In this document: positions 18,152 to 57,950 of the stretch, piece after piece
Numbering within the stretch: the stretch's first letter is position 1
Layout of the letters: every line of letters starts with the position of its first letter
Source: Gammaproteobacteria bacterium
GTDB lineage: Bacteria; Pseudomonadota; Gammaproteobacteria; HTCC5015
Assembly: GCA_028284675.1 (NCBI GenBank)
Contig: JANQRI010000005.1
Span: 31,997-95,996 of the forward strand
Direction: 5' to 3'
Length of the DNA stretch: 64,000 nucleotides
Notes under the pieces: generated by a model
The model's database searches: none
What the model was told of the DNA's origin: nothing
Seen by the model: the letters and a program-made list of their open reading frames with translations, nothing else
Program-made: the position numbers and the translations under genes

Positions 18152-18679
18152 GTGAAAAAAACGATCTTCTCAGCTGTGTTGATCATGATGGTAAGTACCG
18201 GTCACGCGCAACAGGCCGGTTGGGAGTCCTCCCGGGAGGAGTTGCAGGGCATCGACGACCAGGTCCAGACTCTGAAAAAAGAAGTCATTCAAATAAACCA
18301 TGAGTTGTCTCTACTTGAGGAAAAACTGCTGTTTCCGTCGACGACCCAGCTTTCGGTGTTTGTATCGCTGGAGGCCAAGCCGGAGTTTCGTCTTGACTCG
18401 GTGGAACTGAAAGTAGGCGAGCAGGTTGTTGCAAAGCATATTTACACGTTTCGCGAACTTGAAGCACTGCAAAAGGGCGGCGTACAAAGGTTGCATACCG
18501 GTAACATTGCGACTGGAAAGCATCAGTTGCACGCGGTTATTCGCGGTAAAACCGCCGGAGGCAGCAATTTTGAGCGCACCGCGAGTTTTCCGGTTACCAA
18601 AGACATCAAGCCCAAGTTTGTTGAAATGCAGGTACAGGCCGGTGGCACCCAGCCACGCGTAAATTTCAAAGACTGGTAA
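18152..18679 (+). CDS. Secreted coiled-coil/beta-rich protein, first gene of the TPR-ExbBD-TonB-like cluster
   Basis: GTG at 18152 lies 6 nt after GGAGG (18141-18145) and gives the signal peptide VKKTIFSAVLIMMVSTGHA. The ORF track starts at 18137. The mature protein has a heptad-like stretch (QVQTLKKEVIQINHELSLLEEKL), then a beta-rich part. I do not recognise the family. Confidence 0.7.
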   Translation: MKKTIFSAVLIMMVSTGHAQQAGWESSREELQGIDDQVQTLKKEVIQINHELSLLEEKLLFPSTTQLSVFVSLEAKPEFRLDSVELKVGEQVVAKHIYTFRELEALQKGGVQRLHTGNIATGKHQLHAVIRGKTAGGSNFERTASFPVTKDIKPKFVEMQVQAGGTQPRVNFKDW

Positions 18680-18688
18680 TTTGCAATT

Positions 18689-20698
18689 TTGAGCAGGCAA
18701 ATGGTTTTTGGGATACGTTTTCCAATCGCATTGACTCTCGGCATAGTGCTGTTTGCCGGGCATTCGGGAGTTTCTGCAAAACAGGACCCGTCCGAACTCA
18801 ATGATCTCTATTATGGTGAAGCACTTTTTTATGCATTACAGGAAAACCACTTCGATGCGATAACCCGGCTGGATGCTGAGTTGATTCAGCATTACGCACT
18901 GGATGAGCCCGAACTGGACAGCCTGGTTAGCCACCGTAGTGATGCTGAATTTGGTGTTGGTGATTTGGAGCTGAATTACCGTATGCACCAAAAAGCCGGT
19001 CGTGCGATAGAAAGAGTCCTGGATGCCAAGCATGTTCCCCAGATTATTCGTAATGAAGCGGCTTACCGGTTGGCCCGTATATATTTTGAAAAAGGTTATT
19101 ATGTAAACGCATTACATGCATTGCAGTTGATCCAGGGGCCGGTGCCGGAACGTATTAAAGATGAGGTGGTATTGCTGCGTGGCCAGGTGGAGATGACCCA
19201 AAGAAACTATGATACTGCGGTTAAGTTGTTTCAGTCAGTCAAAGGGTCTAAAAGCGTTTTTGGTTATGCGCAGTTTAATTTGGGAGTTGCGCTGATTAGA
19301 GCTGATAAATTCAAAAAAGGCGCTGCACAGCTGGATCAGGTTGGCTTGTTTCAGGATGGTCGCCGGGAAATGATAGCGTTACGCGACAAAGCGAACCTGG
19401 TATTAGGCAACAGACTGCTTGAAGATGGTAAACCCCTGCAGGCCAGACAGTATTTTGAACGCGTGCGCCTGGAGGGGCCGTTTTCCAATAAAGCTTTACT
19501 GTGGGCCGGTTGGGCGAATGCCGCACAACTGGACTTCAGAAGTGCTTTGGTTCCCTGGACTTTATTACATGAGCGCGATCCCACTGATGCGGCGGTTCAG
19601 GAAGCATTGCTTGCTGTCCCGTATGCGTATGCCCAGCTGGAGACTTTCGGGCAGGCAGCTTTATTGTATGGTAAAGCTGTTACTGAGTTTGATAAAGAGA
19701 TAGACCGTCTGGATTCATCAATGCGAAGCATACTTGAGGGTAAACTGCGGGTGGCTTTATTGAAAGATCCGCAGGAGCGTAATTCAACATTTATTCAGAA
19801 TTTACGCAGTCTCGAGGATGCCCCGGAGACACGCTATCTTCTGGAGCTGATGGCGAGCCATGATTTTCAGGAATCGGTCAAAAATTATCGTGATATGGAG
19901 CATTTGCGCCTTAACCTGCTCCAATGGCTGGCCAATATTGAAGCATATAATGATCTGATTAAGATTCGCCGAAATTATTATGAGCCGCTGTTGCCCGGAA
20001 TCGAACAGGAATTCAAAACCCAGGATGCATTAATGAGTTCGGTATTGTTGCGTCGCGATGAAGCTGAGCGCCAATTGGACACTGCGCAGCGTCAACGTGA
20101 TATCAATGCGTTTATGACACAGTCTGAGCTGGTCGTCAGTGGCCGGCTTGCACGACTTGAATACCGGCTTTCAAGATTGTCACCGCAGCCGGGGCTTAAG
20201 CAGGCGAAAGCACGTCTGGCCCGCTTGCAGGGCGTATTGGATTGGCAGGTGGAAACCGGTTATGACAGTCGTCTCGCGGTTACTCATGAGCATCTGAAAG
20301 AGCTGGATAAATCCCTGGAGGCGCTTCGTGTGCAGCATCAATTGGTTGTGCGTCTCAAGCGCGAAGCTTATCAGAGTTATGAAGGTTACAAAGTACCGTT
20401 TCGGCGTGCGACCACCCGTTTACGCACATTAAACAATCGTATTAAAGCGATTATGGTGCAGCAGGCAGCTTATCTGGAAAAAGTTGCAGTAAAAGAGCTG
20501 GATCGGCGCCGCCGTAAACTGGCTGATTACCGTGTTAAAGCGCGATTTGCGTTGGCAGAGAGCTATGACCGTGCCACCAAGAAAAAAGCCGAAGAAGCCG
20601 AGCGGGCTATTCGTGAACAACAAAATCAAATTCAGGAAATTCAGGTTGAAGACGAACCGGCAATCACTACAGAAGAAGCAGAGGCCGGCGCTTCATGA
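18689..20698 (+). CDS. Secreted TPR-like plus long coiled-coil protein
   Basis: 669-aa ORF (TTG 18689, alternative ATG 18701) with signal peptide ...LFAGHSGVSA. The N-terminal half has helical-hairpin TPR-like units (e.g. AAYRLARIYFEKGYYVNALHALQ). The C-terminal half is heptad-rich with an acidic tail. Confidence 0.75.
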   Translation: MSRQMVFGIRFPIALTLGIVLFAGHSGVSAKQDPSELNDLYYGEALFYALQENHFDAITRLDAELIQHYALDEPELDSLVSHRSDAEFGVGDLELNYRMHQKAGRAIERVLDAKHVPQIIRNEAAYRLARIYFEKGYYVNALHALQLIQGPVPERIKDEVVLLRGQVEMTQRNYDTAVKLFQSVKGSKSVFGYAQFNLGVALIRADKFKKGAAQLDQVGLFQDGRREMIALRDKANLVLGNRLLEDGKPLQARQYFERVRLEGPFSNKALLWAGWANAAQLDFRSALVPWTLLHERDPTDAAVQEALLAVPYAYAQLETFGQAALLYGKAVTEFDKEIDRLDSSMRSILEGKLRVALLKDPQERNSTFIQNLRSLEDAPETRYLLELMASHDFQESVKNYRDMEHLRLNLLQWLANIEAYNDLIKIRRNYYEPLLPGIEQEFKTQDALMSSVLLRRDEAERQLDTAQRQRDINAFMTQSELVVSGRLARLEYRLSRLSPQPGLKQAKARLARLQGVLDWQVETGYDSRLAVTHEHLKELDKSLEALRVQHQLVVRLKREAYQSYEGYKVPFRRATTRLRTLNNRIKAIMVQQAAYLEKVAVKELDRRRRKLADYRVKARFALAESYDRATKKKAEEAERAIREQQNQIQEIQVEDEPAITTEEAEAGAS

Positions 20699-23600
20699 TG
20701 CGGTATCCATACCATACGATAACCCTGGTGCTGCTGACAGTTGCATTATCTTCCTGTGGTGGTGGCGTTCGGCACAAAGACAGTATTGGCAGTCTGAATA
20801 AAAAGGTTATCAAAGTCGAAGAACCGCTGATTGAAGACTCGCTGGAAAAAGCGATGCAGGCCTATCGTAAATTCCTGACTGAGACTGACGAAACGGAAAT
20901 GACTCCTGAGGCTATGCGTCGCCTGGCTGATTTGCAGCTGGAGGCAAGCTCCGGCTCGTATGATTTTGTAAAACCTCCTGAGACTGTTAAAAAGCCTGTT
21001 CAGGAAAAACAAAAAGCTGTTGCCAAAAAACCAGTGCAGCAGGCGCCGGTTCGTCCCAGTGGCGCAACAGTTAAACAGGAGTCGATTGACCCTTCACAAT
21101 TTGGGAAATCAAAAGTTGAGTCGCCAATCCTGGAGGAGCGGGCCGATGGTACACAGGTTGCGAAAAAAGGCATTACAGCAAATCCGGAAATTAAGTCCTT
21201 AAGCGACGAGTTTAATATTGGTCCTCGCAGTGTTGAAATATTATTCTCGCTGGAGTACGAAAAAAATTCAGCCGCAATTGAATCCGAAGGTGATTTTGAA
21301 AAACGTGCTACCGGTATTTCCAAACCGGCAGCCGCACAAACAATCGCATCACTGCCGGAAGAAGCCGCTGCTGAGCAACAGCAACAAGCTGTGATTGCAA
21401 ATGCAGAAGAGGCGATTGCGCTTTATAAAAAATTATTGGACAAGTATCCACTTTACGAACGTAATGACCAGGTGATGTATCAGTTGGCCCGTGCATATGA
21501 GGAAAGCACCAGGCAGGAAGAGGCAAAAGCGGTGCTGGATAAGCTGGTTAAAAAATATCCGACATCTGTTCATTATGATGAAGCTCAGTTCAGGCGCGGT
21601 GAAATATTTTTTGTGCGCCGTAAGTATTTTGATTCGGAAAAAGCGTATACCCATGTCGTCAATTATGGTCCGAGTTCCGCATTCTATGATCAGTCTTTAT
21701 TTAAGCGCGGTTGGTCATTTTTCAAACAAAGTCTCTATGAAGAAGGTCTGGATGATTTTGTTAAATTATTGGATATCAAAACGGCAGCTGGCTATCACAT
21801 CAAAACTGAGACAAACAAAACTGAGTATCAACGGGTCGATGATACTTTTCGGGTGGTTAGTTTAAGTTTTTCTTATTTGGGTGGTCCCTCTTATATTAAC
21901 GATTATTTTAGCCGGCGTGGGCACCGCGATTATGAGTATCTGGTCTACAGTTATCTGGGAGAGCATTATCTGATCAAACGTCGCTATCAGGATGCGGCGG
22001 ATGCATACAATACATTTATTTCACTTAACCCCTATCATGAAAAATCGCCAAGCTTTCATATTCATACTATCGAGATTTACCGTAAGGGCCAGTTTCCCAA
22101 GCTGGTTATCGATGCTAAAAGGGAATTTGCGATCACCTATGATTTAAACGGAGCTTACTGGACTTATCATGATATTAATCAGTTTCAGGGAATCCTTGCA
22201 TTTATAAAAACCAATCTGACGGATTTGGCCAAGCATTATCATGCTTTGTCACAACGTTCTAAAAAGCGTGACAAACGCCGTGAGGCATATCTGGAAGCCG
22301 CGCGCTGGTATCGCAGTTTTCTGGCTTCGTTTCCGGAAGATAAGCAGGCACCTGAGTTGAATTTTTTACTGGCTGAGCTTTTATTTGATAACAAAGAGTA
22401 TAAGCAGGCTGCCGAGGAATATGAGCGAACTGCCTATGCGTATCCGGTTCACCCCAAATCGGCCGAATCAGGTTATGCGGCGATTTTGTCTTTTCGCGAA
22501 TATAAAAAACAGGCGCCGGAACATTTAAAAGCGCAAATTCATTTGGAGGCAATACGAAGCTCCCTGCAGTTTGCTGATACGTATCCGGCGCATCCGCAGG
22601 CAGCTGATGTATTGACCAGTGCTGCTGAAAGCCTGTATGCGCTTAAAGAGTATGACCGGGCTATTATGGCGGCGCAAAAAGTATTGGAGCGGCATGCGAA
22701 GGCGGACCCGAAGTTAATAAGCGCTTCCTGGATTGTTGTGGCGCATTCAAAGTTTGATTTGCAAAACTTTCCCGACGCGGAGCAGGCATATCAGCAGGTT
22801 TTAAAATTATTACCGAAAAAAGACAAGCGTAAAACAGCGTTGACCGACAAGCTGGCCGCATCCATATATAAACAGGGTGAACAGCATAAAGATCTGGGAG
22901 AATTGGATCTGGCTGTTGAGGATTTCTTGCGTATCGCGAATGTTGCGCCACGTTCCAAGATTCGCCAGACGGCTGAGTTTGATGCGGCAACCGCATTGAT
23001 TACCTTAAAGGACTGGGATCGTGGCGCTAAGGTTTTGGAAGCATTTCGAAAAAACTATCCGAAAAACCCGCTGCAATATGATGTGACTACCAAACTGGCA
23101 TTTGTTTATCAGGAAAGCGGTCAGGCCGGTGCAGCGGCACGTGAATATCAGCGCATCGCGGATGACAGTAAGGATACCGCAGTCAAGCAGGAAGCACTGC
23201 AGAAAGCTGCCGAGCTTTATACCCAGGCTGAACAGTACCCTGCGGCCATTTCAATGCATAAACGTTTTATCAAAAGGTATGCCGATCCGGTTGAGCCGGC
23301 GTTGGAAGCAAGACAGCAACTGGCTGAGCTGTATAAAAAGATCGGCCAGCAAAAACAATATACAAAGACCCTGAAAGAAATTGTCGCGGTTGATAAAAAA
23401 GCAGGTAAGCAACGCAATGAGCGCACCCGCTTTCTGGCGGCAAATGCGGCTTTGGTGCTGGCCGAGCCTGTATTGAAGGTATTTAAAGATGCTCCTTTGG
23501 GACCGCCGTTTAAAAAGACCCTTGCAGCGAAGAAAAAGAAGATGCAGCGGGCACTAAACTTATACGGGGATCTGGCCGATTACAACGTGGCGGAGGTCAC

Positions 23601-23901
23601 CGCTGCGGCAACATTCCAGATTGCCAATATATATTATGAATTCAGTACAGATCTATTGGAGTCAGAACGGCCCAAAAAGCTATCCGCTGAAGAACTGGAA
23701 CAGTACGATTTATTACTTGAAGAGCAGGCTTATCCATTTGAAGAGAAAGCCATCGAAGTTCATGAAAAGAATGTCGAGTTGCTGTCTCTGGGTGTATACA
23801 ACCGGTGGATAGCAAAAAGTTTGGAAAGCCTCGGGCGTTTATTGCCGGTGCGTTATGCAAAACAAGAGCAAGGTGAAAAATTTGTTCTCTCTATTTATTA
23901 A
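20695..23901 (+). CDS. Large TPR-repeat lipoprotein (GltD/NfsD-like by architecture)
   Basis: 1,068-aa ORF with an ATGA overlap with the upstream gene. The lipobox is LSSC (Cys codon 20755-20757). It has a Lys/Pro/Gln-rich linker, then many YbgF/BamD-like TPR hairpins (e.g. QVMYQLARAYEESTRQEEAKAVLDKLVKKYP). Confidence 0.75.
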   Translation: MMRYPYHTITLVLLTVALSSCGGGVRHKDSIGSLNKKVIKVEEPLIEDSLEKAMQAYRKFLTETDETEMTPEAMRRLADLQLEASSGSYDFVKPPETVKKPVQEKQKAVAKKPVQQAPVRPSGATVKQESIDPSQFGKSKVESPILEERADGTQVAKKGITANPEIKSLSDEFNIGPRSVEILFSLEYEKNSAAIESEGDFEKRATGISKPAAAQTIASLPEEAAAEQQQQAVIANAEEAIALYKKLLDKYPLYERNDQVMYQLARAYEESTRQEEAKAVLDKLVKKYPTSVHYDEAQFRRGEIFFVRRKYFDSEKAYTHVVNYGPSSAFYDQSLFKRGWSFFKQSLYEEGLDDFVKLLDIKTAAGYHIKTETNKTEYQRVDDTFRVVSLSFSYLGGPSYINDYFSRRGHRDYEYLVYSYLGEHYLIKRRYQDAADAYNTFISLNPYHEKSPSFHIHTIEIYRKGQFPKLVIDAKREFAITYDLNGAYWTYHDINQFQGILAFIKTNLTDLAKHYHALSQRSKKRDKRREAYLEAARWYRSFLASFPEDKQAPELNFLLAELLFDNKEYKQAAEEYERTAYAYPVHPKSAESGYAAILSFREYKKQAPEHLKAQIHLEAIRSSLQFADTYPAHPQAADVLTSAAESLYALKEYDRAIMAAQKVLERHAKADPKLISASWIVVAHSKFDLQNFPDAEQAYQQVLKLLPKKDKRKTALTDKLAASIYKQGEQHKDLGELDLAVEDFLRIANVAPRSKIRQTAEFDAATALITLKDWDRGAKVLEAFRKNYPKNPLQYDVTTKLAFVYQESGQAGAAAREYQRIADDSKDTAVKQEALQKAAELYTQAEQYPAAISMHKRFIKRYADPVEPALEARQQLAELYKKIGQQKQYTKTLKEIVAVDKKAGKQRNERTRFLAANAALVLAEPVLKVFKDAPLGPPFKKTLAAKKKKMQRALNLYGDLADYNVAEVTAAATFQIANIYYEFSTDLLESERPKKLSAEELEQYDLLLEEQAYPFEEKAIEVHEKNVELLSLGVYNRWIAKSLESLGRLLPVRYAKQEQGEKFVLSIY

Positions 23902-24550
23902 TGGAAAACCCTGGTTGTTTTTTGGGTTGTTGATGATCCTCGTTGGCTGTGTAGGGGGCAATACCAGCGTAAAGTACCGCGGTAGTGAAGCCCGGTCGCC
24001 GGTCGCGATTAGTGCCGCGTTGCAAAACGATTTTAAAAAAGCACTTGCACTGATGAAAAAGGAGAAGTACGAGGATGCGATCCCGCTTCTTGAGGCTATT
24101 TTGGCAAAAAATGATCAACTTCCGGGTACGCATATTAATCTGGCCATTGCGTATATGAATGTGGTAACTGACGATGATAAGGAAAACTTAAGCAAAGCGG
24201 AGCGTTCCCTGTTACGTGCTGTTGAAGTAAACCCCAAAGATGCTGTTGCACATCACCAGCTCGGTTTACTGTATCGCAAAACCGGGCGTTTTAAAGAGGC
24301 CCAGACAGCATATCAACGCGCACTTTCGCTCAAGCCGGACTATGCTAAAGCGCATCTGAATCTTGGCATTTTATGCGATATTTATTTACAGGAGTTTGAG
24401 TGCGCGATTAAGCATTTTGAGCAATACAGCGGTATGGCAGGAGAAGATCGTGAAACAGTTTCATTATGGCTTTCGGATTTGCGACGGCGGGCCGGTATTC
24501 CTGAGCCGCCGCAACAAGAGCAGGCTGCTGTCAGTGAGGTGAGTCCATGA
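23855..24550 (+). CDS. Small TPR lipoprotein (GltE/NfsE-like by position)
   Basis: 231-aa ORF with lipobox ILVGC (Cys codon about 23948). It has canonical TPRs (AHHQLGLLYRKTGRFKEAQTAYQRALSLKPDYAKAHLNLG). The start is uncertain: ATG 23855 overlaps the upstream gene by 47 nt, and GTG 23873 is an alternative. Confidence 0.75.
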   Translation: MQNKSKVKNLFSLFINGKPWLFFGLLMILVGCVGGNTSVKYRGSEARSPVAISAALQNDFKKALALMKKEKYEDAIPLLEAILAKNDQLPGTHINLAIAYMNVVTDDDKENLSKAERSLLRAVEVNPKDAVAHHQLGLLYRKTGRFKEAQTAYQRALSLKPDYAKAHLNLGILCDIYLQEFECAIKHFEQYSGMAGEDRETVSLWLSDLRRRAGIPEPPQQEQAAVSEVSP

Positions 24551-24825
24551 GAATAATTTCAATTGTGCTATTCATGTGTATCGGGCTAAACAGTGCGGTG
24601 CATGCACAGGCTCAACCGGAAGGTGAAACAGTCGATATGAGTGGCATTTCAATTATTGGTAACAGAGAACTGCCCAAAACCCTGTTTATTGTGCCGTGGA
24701 AGAATTCCGAGGTGGGTATCGAGAGTGAGCTGACAAACACACTTGATGCGGGTATGCGGCCTGTTGATCGTAAAGAGTTTGTGCGCGAGCTGGATTATTA
24801 TGATTTTAGCCGCAATCTGCAGTAG
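24547..24825 (+). CDS. Small secreted protein of unknown function (GltF-like only by size and position)
   Basis: 92-aa ORF with an ATGA overlap with the upstream gene and signal peptide MRIISIVLFMCIGLNSAVHA. No recognisable domain. Confidence 0.6.
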   Translation: MRIISIVLFMCIGLNSAVHAQAQPEGETVDMSGISIIGNRELPKTLFIVPWKNSEVGIESELTNTLDAGMRPVDRKEFVRELDYYDFSRNLQ

Positions 24826-24997
24826 ACCTGGGGTTTGTGCATATACCTTGAATGAGCCTGTATAAAAGAGCTTTCCGGGTAGAGCTTGCTGAATCAGTGC
24901 AGGTTGCGGGATTTGCTGCTGTAAACAGAAGAATAAGCTTAAAAATTTGTGTTGGTTCAATACTTTGGGCTAAAGTGCTCCAAATTATCTAAGGTTT

Positions 24998-25006
24998 TGA
25001 TAGTAT
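24998..25006 (+). promoter_or_regulatory. Candidate extended -10 promoter element upstream of exbB-like gene
   Basis: TG-A-TAGTAT (TGnTATAAT-like) lies 30 nt upstream of the ATG at 25036, inside a 210-bp non-coding gap. The -35 is weak (TCCAAA). Confidence 0.25.
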
Positions 25007-25035
25007 ACAGCTGATTTTGCGAAGAGGGTGTCGGT

Positions 25036-25689
25036 ATGTCTGATTTTTTATATGCAATTCCCCGGTTTTTTCAAACGGGCGGACCATTCATGTATCCGAT
25101 TCTTATCGTGTTTGGTTTCGGGCTGGCGATCGCGATTGAGCGCTGGATAAAGCTGAATAGTGCCAGGCGTCGCAACAGGAAAACATGGGACGAAATCCAG
25201 CCAGTTTTACAGGAAGGTGATTTTGATCAGGCGCGGGAGATGACCTCGGGCTCCGAAACCGAGTTGGGCATGGTATTAAGCTTGGGTTTAAGCCGTCAGG
25301 GTGCGGTGCGCCGACGCGATGATATCGAGATCGCGATGGAAGAGGGCATGATGGAAATTATCCCGCAACTGGAGAAGCGCACACATTATTTGGCATTGTT
25401 TTCAAATATGTCCACACTGTTGGGATTATTGGGAACAATTATGGGCCTGATTGCAGCGTTTACCGCGGTGGCAAATGCGAATCCGGCTGAAAAGGCGGAT
25501 TTGCTCTCGGCCAGTATCTCGGTTGCAATGAATACGACCGCATTCGGTTTGATGGCAGGTATTCCATTGCTGTTATTGCATGCGGTATTAACCACCAAGA
25601 CCAGTGAGATTGTGGATAGTCTGGAAATGGCTCAGGTTAAAACCCTGAACATCATTACCGAGTTTGCCAAGCAAGAAGCGCGTAGCTGA
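25036..25689 (+). CDS. MotA/TolQ/ExbB-family proton channel subunit
   Basis: 217-aa ORF with three TM segments. The C-terminal region LFSNMSTLLGLLGTIMGLIAAF ... SVAMNTTAFGLMAGIPLLLLH is typical of ExbB/TolQ. Confidence 0.9.
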   Translation: MSDFLYAIPRFFQTGGPFMYPILIVFGFGLAIAIERWIKLNSARRRNRKTWDEIQPVLQEGDFDQAREMTSGSETELGMVLSLGLSRQGAVRRRDDIEIAMEEGMMEIIPQLEKRTHYLALFSNMSTLLGLLGTIMGLIAAFTAVANANPAEKADLLSASISVAMNTTAFGLMAGIPLLLLHAVLTTKTSEIVDSLEMAQVKTLNIITEFAKQEARS

Positions 25690-26728: not shown

Positions 26729-26774
26729 GGTCTGTTGACATTAATGGCATGTATCTGCCGATTGCATAGAGACA

Positions 26775-40500: not shown

Positions 40501-41264
40501 CTTTGCAGGGGCTCGATACGATGACAATTAAGTTGTTATTAATTGTTGGTGCCGGTGTTGGCGAAGGCGAGTATACCAATACCGCACAAGCGTTTATTGC
40601 CGGCCTGGCCGGTTCTGTTTCCGGTGTCGCCAGTGCCACAGTACGCGTCGTACCGGACCCGACTTTTGATTGTTCAGATGTAGTCGGCAAGGTTTATGAT
40701 GATCGCAATGCGAATGGTTATCCGGATAGCGGGGAACCGGGTATCCCGGGTGCAAGAGTGGTTACCGCCAGGGGGCTGGTGATCACCGCTGATCAATTCG
40801 GTCGTTTTCATGTTGTTTGTGCGGCGGTACCGAACCCTGACCGTGGTTCTAATTTTATTATAAAGCTTGATGAACGGAGTCTGCCTTCCGGATATCGGGT
40901 AACCACTGAAAACCCGAGAGTCCAACGCCTGACCCGTGGTAAAGCCGCGAAGTTTAATTTCGGTGTCACCGTGCACCGAGTCGTGCGTGTTGATCTGACC
41001 GATGCGGCGTTTGAGCCGGGTGGTGCCGAGATACGTGAACACTGGCATTATGTGATCGACGATTTATTTAAGCAATTGCGCGAAGGTCCTTCAGTATTAA
41101 GGCTGTCATACCTGGGTGACAGAGAGTCCGGCAGTCTGGCTGCACGGCGGGTCAAAGCAACCAAGAAGCTGATCGCCAAACGCTGGAAGGCATTAAGTTG
41201 TTGCTACAACCTGCAGATTGAAACCGAAGTATTCTGGCGTACCGGCCGGCCGGGGGACAAGTGA
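28557..41264 (+). CDS. Giant (4,235-aa) secreted surface protein built of DUF11-type and prealbumin/SdrD-B-like beta-sandwich repeats; putative adhesin
   Basis: Uninterrupted 12.7-kb ORF (TTG 28554 / ATG 28557) with Sec signal peptide MPNKKITRQVLPLIRYCFFGFSLLALLTVHPIARA. It has many modules of the form L-x-[IV]-x-K...Y-x-[IV]-x-V-x-N-x-G...A-x-N-V-x-[IV]-x-D-x-[LI]-P, for example LIVEKTS...LRYTITAKNISNENAVNVLLRDQIP. Composition is acidic and rich in Thr, Gly, Asn, Val and Pro. Confidence 0.9.
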   Translation: MPNKKITRQVLPLIRYCFFGFSLLALLTVHPIARAVPLINSATQFTPADTARDPDSVPNNGDEYMDSAGVWNGLVEVTNTTGDSFQITLTNSAAGAPDPLVDDVAFDIGLTLNVPAGFRLPVSPFNVTTAATGGDPGAANCVAPGGGTITATQAGGAGTPITFNIPADTNLPARAPCNYSFQFGLTTNDSAPFVTGGNYQLDYDFSYNEIDDDAGSQQTTNAMQSVEVREGDIIIVKAAVPNPADPNGAYADGETAEWTVSVFGNGNGGSFAVLITDLLNINFDAATLQLTPPANPPGTPFPVPVGNNQYTINYLAPGQRVDITVQANVAVPANAASCPDLRNDVNAADRLGNASASFDSVVFDLQDPLLAYTPNDINIPFGGTDTVSFNVTNPGLGADGGTARNIVLDVSGLAGFTVSNVSALWAFDGTSQFTYLGLDGLPASGDEILVNGGSALLQFDVGMGTCGGPAASTLTWTPSYENLCGLSFTPPIETSTITVVNEPTLGITKAVAPGVTNFGQPAVYTIDITGANAGGLPTVAGVDNDWTVTDTLPPGVSAGVIPAVPTGTIITIGATVFTDVDTNIPVTAGDTIIWQGDRDDLVPTLPSITVNFTVDSGPFCPPDPPITIGNTATLDYPSCGINVADGAALLVNDSPIDGALQQFTISAGTPAPFETGRPDTDLVAVNEANEGERITFTATYQFPVGYPGIWSGSSLTTEMGTGAGGLAGSPLQLAFVDGNGDDLPTAGEVSGVTVQVTNPGGPDFPLTNLTIGAAAGQVTVNPGGTITIANLDFIGAVVGANMADTTFTIAYTVTAPEGNLDANLQPLDEVNIGAFTERLTFSVANNPASCGGGIDFTQGITGIQLERSDVGIGGNISTTNDAGACGPTTATIDITAPPAGGLNADNIRILLQGTDYVLPNMVGDYTFGGAGNLAALNPTISFAGSDVIIEVTPGDGGNLTGDSTISFPVNLNAAAAARDLPATVFFDSNHTSPDFSIALESDEDYNNAAVLAGPVQTANLDVEFFPPNVILGDPNNFADVDPGQPGLEGVFTWLVRITNVGTNTVSGYVFSNMVPPGFLPFRAGSSPVADAGLLTDPLMVWSGLPDLLPGGSVEITVAIGLPQNAGCNVGNPNQTTVASGCVDGTTLFTENGPNVLFPVIDLQLEHLDTSFCELCRDGTVELEVRNEGASDLYDVVVTENLAGSGLEYVLGSTEVFVEGTAGFVAVGDNAATNATQIVWDSTNIAALGQLLSEINGMPSEMTIRFRVRSSDPNAENLVAANRNISASGDFNLFCGDPGLPLVVDNFQVPLRQPQPQVEKLGRNFSARQTAADYADPVFGGTDDIVIWQVDVANSGVTSSADLEDLLVNDTVAPGLNFTLQFVCPTEADADARAVALETLVAPADACIPYLPVLDVDDPFGNPGNDQPGTFIDAAAGSSAFVYYVGTIQNLCTNENNNVDIQWGCESNSPPAGGINADGSGGALSAGLAAGDDDDSAFLSTTVDPNGVLVTQTFTGTNTAQPVGTKGILTITVTNNSGGTVRDLILTDTLPTDYELDLTSLNPPNTPFVVNPAFGVYPGIADTFAVNATNPNQPVFTFTSSTQGTVNQANLLRNGDELVLTVGVVRVRPFDNVNDPEVRTENPGDGTDPDYAPPLPADDDNTVSLQFSNTCGTVFTDADSVNLPSVIDVNINPEDIDVDINPADPNLLFILSDPTATLNFNVVVSNNGGHDASDYDTYVTVGNGIDPGVIPAGCALAAPPAELGFPPTNPAGILPPEYNPADSLTFRCVTTDPIPPGGSDTFGFTIQRALPLGVSGDLTFRADVLARTTLSDGSAPPDRGAAGYPYYSKDNILARIIGFNLFKTFFGNCSEDNPPPVANGNVIIGEECTFEVEAEWFGFATPGFGNIEVRNPRIYEGALTNNPPPPEGNPGVDPPNLPDTLDGQGLVSIDTTASSAGVSVAVQNPAAPAALAETGLAWRLNNIAAVGNTEERFIARVRWRTLNDPVNTSAVPNLHAALQNDEVNARFDVFFSGTGATVSFDETTAGYPPAALRIASVVVTEPNVTITKEVCNESISIANNPADSGANCQPFVALPGLVMGDSDDLFIYRLTVNNEAAASGVPRAPAYDVAINDSFDASDQIAPFDFTTDGLDNDGDGLVDAADLDGEGTVDDLVLVNGNPADITIDSANSTALAQVDPGATVELFYRARLDNMVTPTQQLINTADGTYDSLPGASGSQSAPLGASGALGGARQYNIPQAQATIEIDNIVVNPGSKEFIDSARRDAGLVAGVCASPCVDENVVIGEEVMVELEFTLPLSELRQFALEDNLPAGIECIEAMDIVLPVFNPPAVDPGFTPGGVFPAATCDANLVRWDLSLAGDQTLQGTGGTMQFDVQARFIARVQNTVVTNNGGIIANGGASTNVNVSYRDAGNTLVMIPIDEARLTVQEPVVTVTKTMDPVAPAITVDARDLINVTVQVQNNGTSPAYNLRLQDDLTAPGTNLTYIAGSQGGANIPDVIDLTIPNAPVFIFNNPLPPAGTFTFTFQVRAADIVQPLEELNNTVAARFTSLPNNNVALNAGGAIGLDGAPNGMRTGAIPPAGDPVNDYEAQGVDQEIVPPLTIVKNDLTPGVPTTIGVRKNFEVVLTLPEGVSNGVIVNDNLMAGTTSFVLENNAAFDIVYTFQDIVSINGVPVAGFATPADAEAAMAAFTAVDAATGLVIWNFGNVVTAIEQDPLTTVVNPRIVINYFARVGNNVTTVAGATLQNAADSNYINGENGGVEVINAPLLGPFVVVEPDLVVNKTGPAVMNPAVPASFTITADNIGTSTAWDVTITDLLPNLDPAPGGMCDNAPVITAIDVAGRALVENVDYTLTFNPAPACTFLITLIPTDAAPPANNARIDAGETLTVVYDHVLDADTASATNLTNIAGATQWFSLDTDGVLVPPEIRTYNRVLTNGTVGVPDHEDAHTLLAQGPVLSISKLVTNLTTGQGPAVNVSASPGDDLQFTLQVDNTGPVAGNNVRVFDDPDLLNTPPGYYENFSTDPTERLRNVTISAPATDNSLVGGGVNNSGFLDITLNTLDACPAPPACPPGSSATVTFDITLDQEILNTAVLDNRASTSVLGLLPVNSNLVQVQVGQTPGLIVEKTSQDLTGDPNVLAVGDQLRYTITAKNISNENAVNVLLRDQIPANTTYVANSTFLNGFAVADPAANTSALTDGLLINSVDVAVPGFMTANPDPAVNNVATIQFTVTVNSNLVNGTVISNQGVVTGLGENNGLGFVPILSDDPATPVANDPTQDIVGSGPIIDAQKQVSIVAGGADGTADPGDTLRYTITVFNSGNSPATGVRLRDAVPASTTYAADTVSLNGLPVAQPDGGISPLIAGIDISSSDLTPPLPGAGAGTLSAGGVATIVFDVTINGGTAAGTIISNQGFITSNQLPEEPTDQDGNDENGDQPTEIVVGGIPELEITKEVVIVGGGTAQAGGQLEYLIRVENTGPVAADNIVISDTMPALTTYVNGSGRINGAVAGVTFAGNVLTADYTSVFGTLGPGDFFLVTFRVQIDALGNPGQSIDNTANLVWNDGAPPNFNAADSASVDIGGAPGVVNLNGLIWHDANHNDLFDPLLEQSLQGWEVQVYFNNAAPTSADTPIATAPLTSDSGLFSFNGLSPGGPYTVTFALPANNVALGETVSTAGTAGLMIITDIFGSAGNNLQDENLAVEPTGVVYNSVSRTGVGGARVRLVRPDGSPVPAGCFITPAHLTNQQGNSPELLGQVTPGFQTSASGQEVPAQAGFYRFDLNFTDPVNCPIGLSDYQIQVIVPNEDDFVAGVSGVIPPDTGPVNLNTCTAPAGQSVDTIPPPPASTCDIQAQGLPPDPVIPRGNGTRYFLDLQLGQTSQSLFNNHIPLDPVLDGVVAIAKTTPLKNVVKGQLVPYTITLTNSFTFPLTGLFVLDNFPAGFKYVEGSAQINGVSTEPVVDGLTLTWSDLTLQGLDTMTIKLLLIVGAGVGEGEYTNTAQAFIAGLAGSVSGVASATVRVVPDPTFDCSDVVGKVYDDRNANGYPDSGEPGIPGARVVTARGLVITADQFGRFHVVCAAVPNPDRGSNFIIKLDERSLPSGYRVTTENPRVQRLTRGKAAKFNFGVTVHRVVRVDLTDAAFEPGGAEIREHWHYVIDDLFKQLREGPSVLRLSYLGDRESGSLAARRVKATKKLIAKRWKALSCCYNLQIETEVFWRTGRPGDK
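37971..39350 (+). repeat. Three consecutive ~160-aa canonical DUF11 repeats (protein-level, divergent at DNA level)
   Basis: The repeats start at LIVEKTSQDL (37971), IIDAQKQVS (about 38460) and ELEITKEVV (about 38940). Each carries the GDxLxYTI-x-V-x-N-x-G...V-x-[LI]-x-D-x-[IVM]P-x-x-T-x-Y pattern. Confidence 0.65.
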
Positions 41265-44200
41265 TGCGCTTCCGGTACGCGATTTTGTATTATTTGCTCG
41301 GTGGTTTGCCGTCAGTCGCGGTTTTTGCGCAGGATGATGTAACGGATAAAAACTGTCCGCAAGGTATTTGTCAGGTGATACCCGATTGCGAGGCGGAGGG
41401 CCTAAGTGAAGAAGAATGCGAGTCATATCAGCGTTCCCGTGCACGCGGGCGTATGCAGGACCAAAATAAAATTATTGAACCGGGTTTTTCGTTACGGAAA
41501 ACCAAATTGCCACAGAACAGTGAAATGCTGTTACCGGACGAGGCATTTACACTGTGGATGCAGGACGAAGAGCAGTTCCGGCCGCAGCAGGATGATGAAG
41601 TGGTTTTTGAAAAACGGATTGTGCAGGATGCAGAGACTATCAAGCTCGATGGGCTTGTTGATCCGGTTCGCTTTAGTTCCGGGCGTGACGATATTCCGGA
41701 GGAGTTTATTGGCCAGCTTCGTGATGTACTGAATGATATGCAGGGGCGTGCCAATGTCCGCTTGCATTTTATCGGCCATACCGATAATCAGGCTTTAAGT
41801 GGCGCATCAAAAGCGCGCTACGGTGACAACATCGGTTTGTCTGCAGCCCGCAGCCGGATGGTCGCCGAGTTTTTTCAACGTGCGCTGGGCTTGCCGCCTG
41901 AGGCGGTTTCATTTGAAGGTCGTGGTGCTGATGAACCGTTAGGGTCGAATGATACCGCAAGTGGCAGAGCGTTAAACCGGCGTGTCGAAGTGGAAGTCTG
42001 GTACGATGAAATTACCGAGAGAGAGGTTGAAGAGCAGGCGATCGGTGGGCCGGAAATGACCCGAATAAAAGTCTGCCGCGTGATGCAGCGTTGTATTTAC
42101 AAACGCAAAACAGGCAACTACAAAAAAATTCAGGTCATTAACGCGGTACCGCCGTTACGTTACGAAGGTACCCAGGTTGATATTGACAGTGCATATTTTT
42201 CACGTTTGCGTAAAGCGCTGGCTGATGTTGAGGATATGCCGAATGTTGCGATCCGGGTGGTCGGGCATACCGATAACCAGCCGCTGACCGGCGCTGTAGA
42301 ACGCATTTACACCGACCGAATTAATTTGTCGAAAGCATTGGCGAACCGGGTTGCACGGGTTATTCAGGAAACATTGAAACTCTCGAATACCGACGTAAGT
42401 GCTTTTGGAAAAGGCGAAACTGCACCGGTTGCACCGAATACCACTGCCAGCGGCCGGGCATTGAACCGCAGGGTTGAGGTGGAAATCTGGCATGATGATC
42501 CACGCGGCACTACCGTAAGCAAGCCGCTCGCCTGTCCGGGTGCGGCAGAGGCTGAGATGGTTACGCAAAAATATGAAGATGAAAAAATCATCGTGCCGTT
42601 CAAAAACGGTCAGCCGGCGTATCCGAATGGGTTTGTGCCGCGCGTGCAACGTATTCTGACCGAGTTGCGCGATAAAACCAATGTGCGCATCAATTTCTCC
42701 GGCCATACGACCAATGAGCGCCTGACCCGGCGCGCGGCCATGGTTTACGGTGATCATATGGGCTTGTCTGAGGCGCGTGGCCGACGGGTGATGCGCTATA
42801 CACAGGAGCAGCTGCAACTGACCGACGAACAGGTTCAGCATGAAGGCCGCGGTTTTATCGAGCCATTAAATAAACCGGATGATTCACCGTTTGCGCGTAA
42901 AACATTCAGTCGCCTCGGCCAGGATAATGATCCAATCGTGAACCCGGCCGATGCGCGGGTTGAACTGGAATTTTTATTCGATGAACTGGCCAAGGTTGAA
43001 GAGGACCCGAATCTGGAAATCGTGCCGGTCATGCAGGAAGAGCAGCCGGTCAGCCCGTTTTCATTGCAGCCGATCAGAGTCACCGTGGATGGGGTTACGC
43101 TGGATGATTCACGCCGGCATTCAGCCGATGTGCAGCGTTGTACCGATCTGGAGCTGGATAAGGTCAATATACAGCTTGCATACGATAATTTGCGTCAGTC
43201 ACCGCGACTGAATGTGCAGGCCGTGCCGGCAACCGTAACATTTTGGGATGATCCGGATACCGAGCCGATGGAAAACAAAGTGCGGTTCAAAGCCTATTCA
43301 AATTACCGCGCTTATATCGCGCGTGCTGAAGTGCGTGTTTATGATGCAGAGCAGTCTCTGCAGTCCGAGCCGCTGGAAGTGCTGCCGCTAAATGAAGAGC
43401 TTTATGCGGAATGGTGGTGGATACCCGAGATCCGGCCGTTCGAAGGACCGGTCAAAGAGCTGCGTTACGTGCTGCGTGTATACGACGATAAAGGCCGTTT
43501 CGATCAAACCGCCGCGAAACCACTGTGGGTGGTTAATCAGTTGAAATCGCCGGAATTTTTGCAGGAAATGGATACTGTTGCGGAACAACGTGTGGTGTAT
43601 GGTGAAAATCACCTGGCGAAGCGCGGTATTCCGGTCAATGGCGGCACGATCACCGTGAACGGTGAGCAGGTTGCTGATGGTTATACGGTATGGATTATGA
43701 ATCAGGCGGTGCCGCTGTCTGAGGACAACGCATTTGTTACTGAGCAGATTATTCCCGATGGCTTGCATTCAGTTGAAGTTGCCGTGTTGGATGGTGAAGG
43801 GAGCGGTAGTTTGTATCTGCGTGATCTCAGGTTAAAACGCAGTGACTGGTTTTATGTCGGTATCGCGGATCTGACGCTGGGTGTTGATGATACCGAAGGG
43901 CCGGCCGCGTTGGTGACCACCGATGATACTCATTATGAGAGTGATTTTTGGGCGGATGGCCGTATTGCGTTTTACACCAAAGGCAAAACCAAAGGTGATT
44001 TTACGATCACCGCAAGTGCGGACAGTCGCGAAGAGCCGTTAGAAGACTTGTTCAGCAATTTTGACCAGAAAGACCCTGATGCGGTTTTTCGTCGGCTTGA
44101 TCCTGATTACTTTTACCCGACTTACGGTGATGACAGCACCACAATAGAAGATGCACCGACCAGTGGCCGGTTTTTCGTGAAAGCTGAAAAAAATGAATCG

Positions 44201-46516
44201 TATGCAATGTGGGGTAATTTTGAAACCAAGCTTTACGATACTGATCTGGCGCAAATAGACCGGGTGCTTTATGGCGCGAATCTGCATTATGAAAGTTTAA
44301 GTACCACTGAGTATGGTGAGAACCGCACTGAGACGGATTTATTTATTGCCGAGCCGGGCACTTTGCTGGCCCGGGAAGAATTCCGCGGTACCGGTGGTTC
44401 GCTATATTTTCTGCAACGCCGTGATATTACGCAAGGCTCTGAACGCCTGCGTATAGAAGTGCGTGATAAAGATTCAGATATCGTTTTACAGGTTACCAAT
44501 CTGGTATATGCACAGGATTATGATATTGACTACATCCAGGGCAGGGTATTATTAAATGAGCCGCTGGCCTCTACCGCTGATGATGGCCTGTTGGTGCAAA
44601 ATGGTTCATTGAGCGGTAACCCGGTTTATCTGGTGGCTCGATATGAATACACGCCCGGTTTTGAGGAGTTGGATGATGTCGCAACCGGTGGCCGGGTCGC
44701 ACACTGGTTTGGTAACAAGTTTAAAGTCGGTGCAAGCTTTTCGAATCAGGAACAACTCGGCGAAGTGCAGGATTTGGCCGGTATTGATCTAACTATCCGC
44801 AAGACGCCGGCGACTTATCTGAAACTGGAGTCGGCGAAAACCGAAGGGCCGGCATTTGGACAGACGTTTTCAAATGACGGCGGTTTCCAGTTTAACAACC
44901 TTAATTTTACCGCTGACCCGGAAACCGATGCGGCTGCGCAACGCCTGGAAGCAGCTGCACAACTAAGCGACTTGTTTGGCAATACACCGGGTAAAGTGAC
45001 GTTGTATCTGCAGGAACGCGAGGCCGGGTTTGCGGCGCCGGGTCAGATTACCAATACCGACGTGTCGCAGGCCGGAGCAAGTGTGAATATGCCGGTCGGC
45101 AGCCGCTGGAATATTTTTGCAAAACTGGATGAACGTGATCAGGAGCAGGGTTTGTCAACATCGGCGATTGAGGTTGATACCCGCTATAAGCTGACCGATC
45201 AATGGCGTTTAAGCTGGGGTGTGCGTGCTGATGAGCGTGAAGATGACTCGGTTGTTGTGCCCGGGACCCAGACCACCGGCAAGCGCACTGATCTGTCATT
45301 CGAAGCGGCCTATGACAGCCTCGGCGACTGGTCGGTTTACGGATTTGTGCAGGGCACTGCCGATACCACCGAGAGTCGCGAAGACAACAGCCGGGCAGGC
45401 GTCGGTTCGGCATATCAGCTGTCGGACCGTTTAAAGCTCGATGCTGAAGTCTCCGGCGGTGACGGCGGTTCCGGCGGGCGCCTGGGAATCGATTATCTGG
45501 TCACCGACAGGACTAATCTATATCTTGCATATGCGCTGGAAAACGAACGTTCCGATACCGGCCTGCGCGCCCGTAATGGCCGTGCGACCGCCGGTTTCCG
45601 CACGCGCTATTCAGATGCATTAAGTGTATACGGTGAAGAGCGACTGCTGTTCGGTGAGCAACCTTCAGGGTTGACCCACGCTTACGGTATTGATATTGCA
45701 CCGGCGGATAAATGGACTCTGGGCATTTCTGTTGAGGCCGGCACGTTGGAGGATAATAATTCCGGCGCTGAAACCGAGCGTACCGCAGTGGGTTTGTCGG
45801 CCGGATTTGGTGGCGACAGAGTCCGGTATGCAACAGCGATTGAGCTACGTGAAGACATTACCGATGTTTCAGAGCGTAATACCTATTTGCTAAAAAATAC
45901 TTTATCGGTACAGCTCAGCCCCAGCTGGCGCACGATCGGCAAACTGAATATATCCGAGAGCGAAAGTTCCGCCGGTGAATTTTTCGACGGCGATTTCACC
46001 GAGTTTATTCTCGGTTATGCATACCGCCCGGTATATCATGACCGCCTGAACATGTTGTTCAAATACACATTTTTTGAAAACTTGCCGTCGCCTGAGCAGG
46101 AAACCACGAACAATGGCGCACGCGCGGATTTTATTCAGCGCAGCAATATTGTATCAGTGGACGCGACCTATGATCTGACCAAGCGCTGGACTTTGGGTAC
46201 CAAGTTGGCACGGCGTATCGGTGAGGTTTCTTTGGACCGAATTGATCCGCAGTTTTTTGAAAGTAATGCGAACCTGATTGTATTGCGGGCCGACTGGCAT
46301 ATTGTCCGCACCTGGGATTTGTTGGTCGAGGCGCGCGCGTTGGAGGTTGAAGAGGCCCAGGATGCCCGCGATGGGTTTTTGGTCGCCGGTTACCGGCATT
46401 TGGGCAACAATTTAAAAATCGGTGTCGGTTATAATTTTACCGATTTCTCTGATGACCTGACCGATCTGGATTTTGACAGCCAGGGTTTGTTTATCAATAT
46501 TGTCGGGAAATTGTAA
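41261..46516 (+). CDS. 1,751-aa outer-membrane protein: three N-terminal OmpA-like peptidoglycan-binding domains plus very large C-terminal predicted beta-barrel
   Basis: ATGA overlap with the giant gene, and signal peptide MRFRYAILYYLLGGLPSVAVFA. The OmpA-like domains lie at about 41645-42004, 42148-42493 and 42598-42980 (HFIGHTDNQ...LSAARS...SGRALNRRVEVEVW). From about 43841 onward the sequence has alternating-hydrophobicity strands with Gly, Asp and Asn turns up to the C-terminus. Confidence 0.85.
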   Translation: MMRFRYAILYYLLGGLPSVAVFAQDDVTDKNCPQGICQVIPDCEAEGLSEEECESYQRSRARGRMQDQNKIIEPGFSLRKTKLPQNSEMLLPDEAFTLWMQDEEQFRPQQDDEVVFEKRIVQDAETIKLDGLVDPVRFSSGRDDIPEEFIGQLRDVLNDMQGRANVRLHFIGHTDNQALSGASKARYGDNIGLSAARSRMVAEFFQRALGLPPEAVSFEGRGADEPLGSNDTASGRALNRRVEVEVWYDEITEREVEEQAIGGPEMTRIKVCRVMQRCIYKRKTGNYKKIQVINAVPPLRYEGTQVDIDSAYFSRLRKALADVEDMPNVAIRVVGHTDNQPLTGAVERIYTDRINLSKALANRVARVIQETLKLSNTDVSAFGKGETAPVAPNTTASGRALNRRVEVEIWHDDPRGTTVSKPLACPGAAEAEMVTQKYEDEKIIVPFKNGQPAYPNGFVPRVQRILTELRDKTNVRINFSGHTTNERLTRRAAMVYGDHMGLSEARGRRVMRYTQEQLQLTDEQVQHEGRGFIEPLNKPDDSPFARKTFSRLGQDNDPIVNPADARVELEFLFDELAKVEEDPNLEIVPVMQEEQPVSPFSLQPIRVTVDGVTLDDSRRHSADVQRCTDLELDKVNIQLAYDNLRQSPRLNVQAVPATVTFWDDPDTEPMENKVRFKAYSNYRAYIARAEVRVYDAEQSLQSEPLEVLPLNEELYAEWWWIPEIRPFEGPVKELRYVLRVYDDKGRFDQTAAKPLWVVNQLKSPEFLQEMDTVAEQRVVYGENHLAKRGIPVNGGTITVNGEQVADGYTVWIMNQAVPLSEDNAFVTEQIIPDGLHSVEVAVLDGEGSGSLYLRDLRLKRSDWFYVGIADLTLGVDDTEGPAALVTTDDTHYESDFWADGRIAFYTKGKTKGDFTITASADSREEPLEDLFSNFDQKDPDAVFRRLDPDYFYPTYGDDSTTIEDAPTSGRFFVKAEKNESYAMWGNFETKLYDTDLAQIDRVLYGANLHYESLSTTEYGENRTETDLFIAEPGTLLAREEFRGTGGSLYFLQRRDITQGSERLRIEVRDKDSDIVLQVTNLVYAQDYDIDYIQGRVLLNEPLASTADDGLLVQNGSLSGNPVYLVARYEYTPGFEELDDVATGGRVAHWFGNKFKVGASFSNQEQLGEVQDLAGIDLTIRKTPATYLKLESAKTEGPAFGQTFSNDGGFQFNNLNFTADPETDAAAQRLEAAAQLSDLFGNTPGKVTLYLQEREAGFAAPGQITNTDVSQAGASVNMPVGSRWNIFAKLDERDQEQGLSTSAIEVDTRYKLTDQWRLSWGVRADEREDDSVVVPGTQTTGKRTDLSFEAAYDSLGDWSVYGFVQGTADTTESREDNSRAGVGSAYQLSDRLKLDAEVSGGDGGSGGRLGIDYLVTDRTNLYLAYALENERSDTGLRARNGRATAGFRTRYSDALSVYGEERLLFGEQPSGLTHAYGIDIAPADKWTLGISVEAGTLEDNNSGAETERTAVGLSAGFGGDRVRYATAIELREDITDVSERNTYLLKNTLSVQLSPSWRTIGKLNISESESSAGEFFDGDFTEFILGYAYRPVYHDRLNMLFKYTFFENLPSPEQETTNNGARADFIQRSNIVSVDATYDLTKRWTLGTKLARRIGEVSLDRIDPQFFESNANLIVLRADWHIVRTWDLLVEARALEVEEAQDARDGFLVAGYRHLGNNLKIGVGYNFTDFSDDLTDLDFDSQGLFINIVGKL

Positions 46517-57949: not shown

Positions 57950-57950
57950 A

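Follow-up and report, generated by a model that had tools for sequence, protein, structure and literature searches.

What does a proton-driven motor do next to a giant fibrillar protein and a very large outer-membrane barrel protein? The question is raised by a ~28 kb block of 11 plus-strand open reading frames (ORFs) in a 64,000-nucleotide stretch of DNA (the window) from a member of the Gammaproteobacteria lineage HTCC5015 (assembly GCA_028284675.1, contig JANQRI010000005.1, positions 31,997 to 95,996). The block lies between pgi, which ends at 18011, and DUF427/dusA. All eleven ORFs of the same-strand block outlined in an earlier note on this DNA were found at essentially the same coordinates, and domain scans of the ORFs bore out its domain inventory. 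The first nine genes (g1-g9, Part A) encode the motor, an inner-membrane transducer and a set of secreted and tetratricopeptide repeat (TPR) proteins; the last two (g10 and g11, Part B) encode the fibrillar protein and the barrel protein. Judged by homology and gene order, Part A is the Agl-Glt "core complex" already published for Gammaproteobacteria. We consider it probable, from comparison of sequences, that the whole block is one conserved 11-gene, two-module envelope system in which a motor driven by the proton-motive force (PMF) acts on a fibre display unit. The features of the block are as follows (window coordinates; lengths in amino acids, aa).

18152-18679, + strand: g1, secreted protein, 175-180 aa, leader ...STGHA followed by QQ, with a coiled coil and then a beta-rich part
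18689-20698, + strand: g2, GltC-like periplasmic TPR protein, 665-669 aa, signal peptide, weak TPR matches
20695-23901, + strand: g3, GltD (AgmU)-like TPR lipoprotein, 1,068 aa, lipobox LSSC followed by GG
23855-24550, + strand: g4, GltE-like short TPR lipoprotein, 222-231 aa, lipobox LVGC followed by VG
24547-24825, + strand: g5, secreted protein, 92 aa, highly conserved motif, C-terminal helix
25036-25689, + strand: g6, AglR-like MotA/TolQ/ExbB subunit, 217 aa, three transmembrane segments (PF01618, 84 bits)
25689-26228, + strand: g7, AglQ/S-like ExbD/TolR paralogue 1, 179 aa (PF02472, 54 bits)
26225-26728, + strand: g8, AglQ/S-like ExbD/TolR paralogue 2, 167 aa (PF02472, 68 bits)
26775-28172, + strand: g9, GltG-like transducer, 465 aa
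28173-28556: AT-rich spacer of 384 bp between Parts A and B
28557-41264, + strand: g10, fibrillar protein, 4,235/4,236 aa, Sec-type leader ...HPIARA followed by VP
39912-41261, + strand: conserved C-terminal module of g10 (C-module), the C-terminal 450 residues
41264-46516, + strand: g11, outer-membrane protein, 1,750/1,751 aa, signal peptide

The two parts are consistently linked. In a GltG-centred test, one genome per GTDB species was scanned with a GltG-like alignment, and the best 80 loci with their 10-kb flanks were searched by tblastn with the 11 window proteins. Of the 58 loci with 2.5 kb or more of downstream sequence, 57 have a homologue of the giant protein directly 3' of GltG, and the nine Part A genes stand in window order wherever the contig reaches. 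The hosts are Microbulbifer and Biformimicrobium, together with metagenome-assembled genomes (MAGs) of Thiotrichaceae, Acidiferrobacterales, Thiohalomonadaceae and Thioalkalispiraceae. In the lone exception, MAG KatS3mg121, the giant and barrel genes share a contig with Part A and lie ~87 kb away from it. A barrel-centred test on metagenome contigs (best 80 matches of the scan) placed the 3' end of the giant gene directly upstream of the barrel gene in 56/56 loci. Part A (g1-g9, in window order) follows directly downstream of the barrel gene in 38 of 63 loci, a permuted B-then-A order; in the other 25 of 63 it would fall out of view beyond the giant gene. The B-then-A order occurs in MAGs of Thermodesulfobacteriota, Desulfobacterales and Desulfuromonas, and one A-then-B locus has a much shorter adhesin (945+696 aa). 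The loci are not near-identical, with GltG identities of 36-63% over several orders and two phyla. That the linkage persists across phyla even where the gene order has rotated strongly indicates that A and B form a functional unit. The earlier note had asked whether the two parts co-occur and stay adjacent; the answer is strongly positive and includes a second gene order, and a functional link between Parts A and B is supported at the sequence level.

The identity of Part A follows from its gene order, its motor set and the AgmX/PglI domain of g9. The core complex was described as gltC, gltD, gltE and gltG with aglR, aglQ, aglS and one extra gene, clustered in Gamma- and Betaproteobacteria, Geobacter and Fibrobacter (PMC3169522). 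The clusters tabulated there, from Marinobacter, Saccharophagus, Hahella, Cellvibrio, Shewanella frigidimarina and Teredinibacter, run in the order GltC (550-692 aa), GltD (933-1016 aa), GltE (162-263 aa), a skipped tag, three motor genes and GltG (321-334 aa) (PMC3169522). Genes g2-g9 show the same arrangement, C-D-E-(small gene)-R-Q-S-G, and measure 669, 1068, 231, 92, 217, 179, 167 and 465 aa. What had been offered as an analogy to Agl-Glt is homology in fact, and the word "undescribed", which the earlier note used of the entire machine, has to be withdrawn for Part A, already published as the Agl-Glt core complex (PMC3169522). Later papers propose that the core complex could be a basal transport or secretion machine and call its function unknown. 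Compared with the 2011 core complex, the block has a longer GltG with a 178-residue coiled coil and an additional conserved gene, g1. None of the Group A gliding genes GltA/B/H, GltK, GltI, GltJ and CglB is present in the block.

The three motor genes are adjacent (25036-26728) and comprise one MotA_ExbB and two ExbD members; the transmembrane helix begins with Asp18 in g7 and with Asp29 in g8. On these subunits, the TolQ model reaches 50.5 bits (cut-off 221) and the TolR model 24-33 bits (cut-off 127), and the ExbB and ExbD equivalogs also score far under their cut-offs. The transducer g9, which has more than 1,600 homologues, is composed of a cytoplasmic coiled coil (residues 1-178), a transmembrane segment (~183-206), a poly-Pro/Lys linker with a poly-Pro stretch at 225-235, and a C-terminal domain (373-465). 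It passes the model of the AgmX/PglI C-terminal domain (NF033768, 67.9 bits against a cut-off of 40) and gives partial matches to GltG and GltJ, the latter confined to the shared C-terminal domain. With the full-length GltG equivalog, g9 reaches 50.9 bits where 650 are required, and it is therefore not an orthologue of MXAN GltG. The earlier description of this protein as TonB-like needs qualification: the TonB_C model TIGR01352 is missed (22.3 bits, cut-off 27.1), but the AgmX/PglI domain that does pass is of the type of a TonB C-terminal domain (CTD). The GltG homologues of 321-334 aa in the 2011 table lack the cytoplasmic coiled coil (26775-27310), and Myxococcus GltG has FHA domains in its place; a partner or regulator in the cytoplasm could dock there.

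Among the remaining Part A proteins, a sequence-level match to the MXAN TPR proteins was obtained for g4 only, as a partial match to NCBIfam GltE (E=2e-12, 46.8 bits, below the cut-off of 225) next to strong TPR matches; the GltC and GltD models gave no hit. The lipoprotein g3 matches TPR_6, TPR_2 and YfiO, with repeated YbgF/BamD-like units, and by tblastn both g2 and g3 are conserved in all loci. The start of g1 is placed at 18152 by the gene caller. This gene is the conserved opening gene of Part A, has a tblastn match in every locus that reaches it with 41-67% identity across the aligned loci, and lies directly 3' of the barrel gene in B-then-A loci. For g1 and g5, no Pfam or NCBIfam match was found, and profile searches of the PDB were equally empty. 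The alignment of g5 homologues yields the motif LSGISIIGN+E.PK.L(Y/F)IVPWK.SEVG. Luciano Table S passes over the locus tag that stands between the homologues of GltE and AglR, and g5 is probably this "additional gene" of the published core complex and a positional analogue of GltF.

In Part B, g10 is a long chain of divergent CLIPPER/DUF11, CLIPPER_2, DUF7619 and SdrD_B-type beta-sandwiches of A/G/V/T/P-rich composition, with 169 bits over six stretches for PF01345 (DUF11) and 193 bits for TIGR01451. The isopeptide-forming domain model TIGR04226 gives 50.9 bits, a match made up of sub-threshold stretches. CLIPPER is the new name of DUF11, a CnaA-like and often isopeptide-bonded domain that forms the stalk of fibrillar adhesins (PMC12617251). 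Of the "beta-sandwich-repeat" giant described before, the beta-sandwich chain stands; no internal repeats are detectable by BLAST, so that g10 is a chain of divergent domains and not a recent tandem expansion. Conservation along the protein is uneven. The C-terminal 450 residues retain 50-60% identity in more than 1,000 proteins; the rest shows ~25-45% identity between loci, the N-terminal two thirds being poorly conserved and the N-terminus often unalignable. The much better conserved C-module fits a machine-bound base with a variable exposed tip. An AlphaFold2 (AF2) model of the last 330 residues (mean predicted score in the local distance difference test, pLDDT, 75.5) contains a CLIPPER domain, a CnaB/SdrD_B-like domain and a ~90-aa beta-alpha-beta-alpha-beta end domain with pLDDT >90 and a CC motif. 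Foldseek relates the C-module model to Gram-positive pilins, SdrD and the CLIPPER structure 9ifr (template modelling score, TM-score, 0.74 on the target). When the end domain was aligned by hhalign with each of the three OmpA domains of g11, the register was consistent and the match weak (E 0.0015-0.007, probability 5-17%). In several genomes the C-module is called as a separate ORF of 580-816 aa behind a shortened giant gene (3680+816 and 945+696 aa), which could be a real split or a frameshift; such ORFs occur in L083 (MAG KatS3mg121, 1-10004), L086 (7189-12091), P0245, P0269, P0276 and P0306.

The barrel gene follows without a gap. The junction reads GTGATG, with the g10 stop codon TGA at 41262-41264, and g11 starts either at GTG 41261 (4-nt overlap, GTGA) or at ATG 41264 (1-nt overlap), the database protein of 1,750 aa corresponding to the ATG start; the ATGA overlap reported before is thereby corrected. 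Behind its signal peptide, g11 carries an N-terminal motif that is conserved (LPD..F..W.QDE). Three OmpA-like peptidoglycan-binding domains follow (~120-580, nt 41618-43000), then a middle domain, also conserved (~580-850), and finally a highly conserved beta region plus giant barrel (850-1751, nt 43808-46513). Two OmpA-like stretches are detected by Pfam and three by TIGR03350, and the C-terminal 900 residues are predicted to be almost entirely beta, in agreement with the triple-OmpA protein with a large predicted barrel of the earlier note. The AF2 model of the C-terminal part shows ~34 strands in residues 1122-1751 (mean pLDDT 67, predicted TM-score 0.53), and the barrel is predicted from this model to have at least 34 strands. 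A PDB sequence search with g11 returned OmpA-like domains only, and Foldseek returned generic large barrels only, namely LptD, TonB-dependent transporters (TBDTs), SprA and MtrB, at TM-scores of 0.13-0.29. Residues 850-1150 (43808-44710), which AF2 models poorly, have 60-67% mean identity to 119 homologues, exceeded only by the last ~50 residues; they could form a plug or gate inside the barrel.

Gene fusions also couple the fibre to the barrel. With the OmpA-less part of the barrel protein as query, HMMER was run exhaustively against 1.84 billion cluster representatives (50% identity) and gave 3,788 matches, 1,116 clusters of them at E<=1e-30. Three architectures were found: proteins of ~1,700 aa with three OmpA domains and the barrel, proteins of ~1,150-1,400 aa without OmpA domains, and proteins of >2,000 aa with a C-terminal barrel, which account for ~30 of the best 150 matches. 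The long proteins inspected begin with a signal peptide, a CLIPPER stalk and the C-module; the middle domain and barrel come next (P0381, P0376), or OmpA domains stand in between (P0363, P0373). None of those inspected has an internal signal peptide, so they look like genuine fusions and not like read-through artefacts. Such "Rosetta-stone" fusions place the C-terminus of the fibre beside the N-terminus of the barrel, as in an autotransporter. One fusion of 5,031 aa with OmpA domains lies directly 3' of a complete Part A.

From these elements we propose the following mechanism. In Part A, the AglR-like ExbB/TolQ subunit and the two ExbD/TolR paralogues would form a proton-driven, stator-like unit. 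It would be joined to the GltG-like inner-membrane transducer, whose Pro-rich linker appears long enough to span the periplasm and whose head resembles a TonB CTD. The GltC-, GltD- and GltE-like proteins and the two small secreted proteins would build a periplasmic TPR scaffold. In Part B, the giant CLIPPER fibre would reach the periplasm via Sec and be threaded through, or held by, the giant barrel of g11, with the C-module staying at the barrel and the three OmpA-like domains tethering the barrel protein to peptidoglycan. The contacts between the modules we infer by analogy with the AlphaFold-based model of the Myxococcus machinery, in which GltC binds the N-terminal strands of the outer-membrane barrels, GltD is a central pillar wrapped by GltG, and GltF, by beta-strand addition and through a C-terminal helix, bridges GltC and the TonB-like head of GltG (PMC11761067). 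On this model, periplasmic parts of the barrel protein would serve as docking sites for the GltG head and for g2, the GltC-like protein, and g5 would be a GltF-like adaptor between scaffold and GltG head, a role that its invariant strand motif and C-terminal helix fit. PMF energy would then reach the barrel-fibre complex through the periplasm, and the fibre would most likely be exposed or extended in a regulated way, tensioned or moved laterally, or released.

Several observations weigh against this proposal. The linkage counts derive from the best 80 matches per scan and include many related genomes (~20 Microbulbifer), so the loci are not phylogenetically independent, and both tests left out the classic core complexes with a short (~325-aa) GltG. 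The GltC- and GltD-like labels of g2 and g3 rest on gene position and length, and the surface location of g10 we infer from its domain type only. The barrel model is moderately confident and has no specific structural match, and scans of g11 revealed no TonB box and no plug, the Plug match in the middle domain having an E-value of 0.19. Finally, four loci of OmpA-less barrels were sampled. Two of these barrels (L169, L171) adjoin adhesins of 2,388-2,604 aa and lack a Part A within 10 kb, and two are fusions (L167, L168) with no Part A in their visible flanks; the motor is thus not needed by the wider barrel family. This suggests that the adhesin-barrel pair is autonomous and that coupling to the motor belongs to the OmpA-bearing subfamily. 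Since adhesin and barrel overlap, are fused or stand alone without Part A, the barrel is most simply the autotransporter-like translocator or anchor of the adhesin. The occurrence of barrel-adhesin pairs without a motor likewise makes it more likely that the motor actuates the fibre than that export depends on it.

The same stand-alone pairs, together with the OmpA-less fusions, speak for an alternative in which Part B is a self-sufficient, type-V-like pair and Part A only assembles or stabilises the barrel, or keeps the envelope intact in the manner of Tol-Pal. The repeated YbgF/CpoB- and BamD-like TPR units in g3, the TolQ/TolR-like motor subunits and the ~87 kb that separate the modules in one genome also suit it. 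Yet Part A is of the Glt type, with the AgmX/PglI domain and Glt gene order, has no TolA, TolB or Pal, and stays far below the equivalog cut-offs; moreover, the linkage survives permutation across phyla and tracks the OmpA-bearing subfamily, which suggests a dedicated interface. We regard this alternative as unlikely, if the most serious of those considered here. Less likely still is that passage of the 4,235-aa fibre through the barrel requires the motor, in the way that GldLM powers SprA-dependent export in the type IX secretion system (T9SS). The periplasm contains no ATP, the predicted size of the barrel equals that of the T9SS translocon class, SprA is among the generic Foldseek matches, and the A-B linkage is tight; however, related barrels whose adhesins are just as long are found with no Part A nearby, and long passengers are exported motor-free by autotransporters and two-partner systems.

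A further possibility is that the barrel is a TonB-dependent-like importer energised by the GltG-like protein, the fibre capturing a substrate such as polysaccharide or mineral particles. It draws on the TonB-CTD-like head of GltG, on TBDTs among the best Foldseek matches, on the faint Plug match in the middle domain (E=0.19) and on hosts that include polysaccharide degraders (Microbulbifer). But that Plug match is not significant, no TonB box was identified in the scans, the Foldseek TM-scores are only 0.16-0.20, and the fusion of fibre and barrel argues for an anchor or translocator. Import is a very improbable function. Mere coincidence of two functionally unrelated neighbours is the least credible explanation. 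The 384-bp spacer could carry its own promoter and the parts are unlinked in one genome, but adjacency in 57/58 and 56/56 loci, a second conserved gene order and a fused Part B gene directly after Part A speak against it. The spacer may indeed hold a promoter for Part B; scans of 17900-29000 and 41000-47200 for promoter and terminator consensus sequences found nothing beyond shuffled expectation.

Measured against known systems, the block belongs to the Agl-Glt core complex family on the features tested and resembles several others. Like the Myxococcus Agl-Glt machinery, it pairs a motor with an outer-membrane barrel module that holds an adhesin, but here a single 1,750-aa mega-barrel with three OmpA domains stands in place of three small porin-like barrels, and a 4,235-aa CLIPPER fibre in place of the VWA lipoprotein CglB. 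With TonB-ExbB-ExbD and Tol-Pal it has in common the motor class, a Pro-rich transducer that spans the periplasm and a TonB-CTD-like head. Membership in the TonB/TBDT family was rejected on the sub-threshold TonB_C score (22.3 vs 27.1 bits), the ExbB/ExbD equivalogs far below cut-off and the Plug E-value of 0.19. Tol-Pal was rejected on TolQ and TolR scores below cut-off and on the lack of TolA, TolB and Pal in the block, the YbgF-like units being repeats inside the 1,068-aa g3.

Type V secretion shares with Part B an N-terminal Sec signal on the passenger, a dedicated barrel that is adjacent or C-terminally fused, and a peptidoglycan-binding periplasmic domain, OmpA here being comparable to the LysM of intimin/invasin. 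The barrel, however, is ~three times larger than any type V secretion system (T5SS) barrel, with at least 34 predicted strands versus 12-16, and the OmpA-bearing subfamily is coupled to a PMF motor; no Autotransporter, ShlB/POTRA or two-partner secretion domains were found in g10 and g11, and type V membership was rejected. The earlier statement that known paradigms explain neither the exporter nor the anchor of the giant protein is softened by the autotransporter-like reading of the barrel. An RTX/LapA-like adhesin of type I secretion was discarded, given the Sec-type leader and the absence of RTX domains and of ABC transporter, membrane fusion protein (MFP) and TolC genes among the window ORFs scanned. 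T9SS and SprB-dependent gliding follow a similar logic, with a giant adhesin, a very large single-chain barrel, an OmpA_C-like/TPR component (PorE-like) and a PMF motor of the MotAB/ExbBD class, but there is no sequence relationship, and the SprA barrel match is generic (TM-score 0.16-0.17). T9SS membership was rejected, as no Por_Secre_tail, SprA or GldKLMN was detected and the PorW/SprE match is restricted to the TPR segment of g3 (41.5 vs 250 bits). The closest relatives of the fibre are CLIPPER/DUF11 adhesins such as Acinetobacter silvestris B9T28_05395, which have the same stalk of CLIPPER, CLIPPER_2 and SdrD_B domains (PMC12617251). An OmpA-type anchor is associated with the adhesin in both; here, in contrast, the OmpA domains and the barrel lie on a separate, translationally coupled protein that is linked to a Glt-type motor.

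Among open-access papers and preprints, we found none that reports the A-B linkage, the barrel family or its fusion forms. The core complex is widespread in non-gliding Gammaproteobacteria, and its function and cargo have been without assignment since 2011 (PMC3169522, PMC3858216). The linkage supplies a specific candidate cargo and outer-membrane partner for this motor, and the question becomes testable in cultured hosts, e.g. Microbulbifer species and Thiohalomonas denitrificans. The barrel family, whose members are either separate from a fibrillar adhesin or one chain with it, seems to represent an autotransporter-like route of display that has no description so far. The comparison with Myxococcus also suggests that the gliding machinery arose from a motor that served a barrel-anchored fibre and was later re-fitted with small porin-like barrels and CglB. 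We advance a wider claim with reserve: the Glt core, the triple-OmpA barrel and the CLIPPER fibre may together be an unrecognised, widespread PMF-actuated surface-fibre machine of Proteobacteria and Desulfobacterota, whose motor would drive secretion, movement or retraction of the adhesin through a new class of barrel with at least ~34 strands, as a counterpart of T9SS/SprB or as the ancestral form of the Myxococcus focal adhesion. If true, such a machine would show what the gliding motor did ancestrally and would define a new family of outer-membrane translocators.

Some further observations concern individual loci. Thiohalomonas denitrificans, which is cultured, apparently has two paralogous triple-OmpA barrel proteins, P0047 (1702 aa) and P0058 (1740 aa), and may hold two copies of the system. 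In the stand-alone locus L171, a 202-aa DUF7933 protein (2200-2808) precedes the 2,388-aa adhesin and may be a minor subunit or tip protein. In L167 (2-1387), an IS5-family transposase gene lies immediately upstream of the fused gene, at the contig end; this 461-aa ORF had been considered as a possible GltG before it proved to be the transposase.

The surroundings of the block are housekeeping genes, with pcnB, folK, panBCD and pgi upstream and DUF427 (46631-46933, opposite strand), dusA and the dcw cluster downstream; the remaining window also holds acetyl/pyruvate carboxylase subunits, plsX-fabH, uvrC and pgsA. The flank scan covered ORFs of at least 140 aa outside the block (all non-nested ones and two shorter ones); Pgi was left out of it, and PGI was called on the matching contig. 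No TBDT, ABC/MFP/TolC, POTRA/TpsB, usher or T9SS protein was found among the flanking ORFs scanned, and for the ORFs scanned the corresponding claim of the earlier note about the window holds. The two ORFs that flank dusA, 47135-47800 (221 aa) and 48880-49710 (276 aa), have no Pfam match at E<=1e-5. The G+C content is higher in 28001-46000 (Part B, 0.49-0.54) than in Part A and the flanks (0.46-0.49), which may reflect the Ala/Gly/Pro/Thr/Val-rich composition of the fibre or a different history. Further downstream, the start of the dcw cluster is complete at 50461-63097, with mraZ, rsmH, ftsI, murE, murF, mraY, murD, ftsW, murG and murC.

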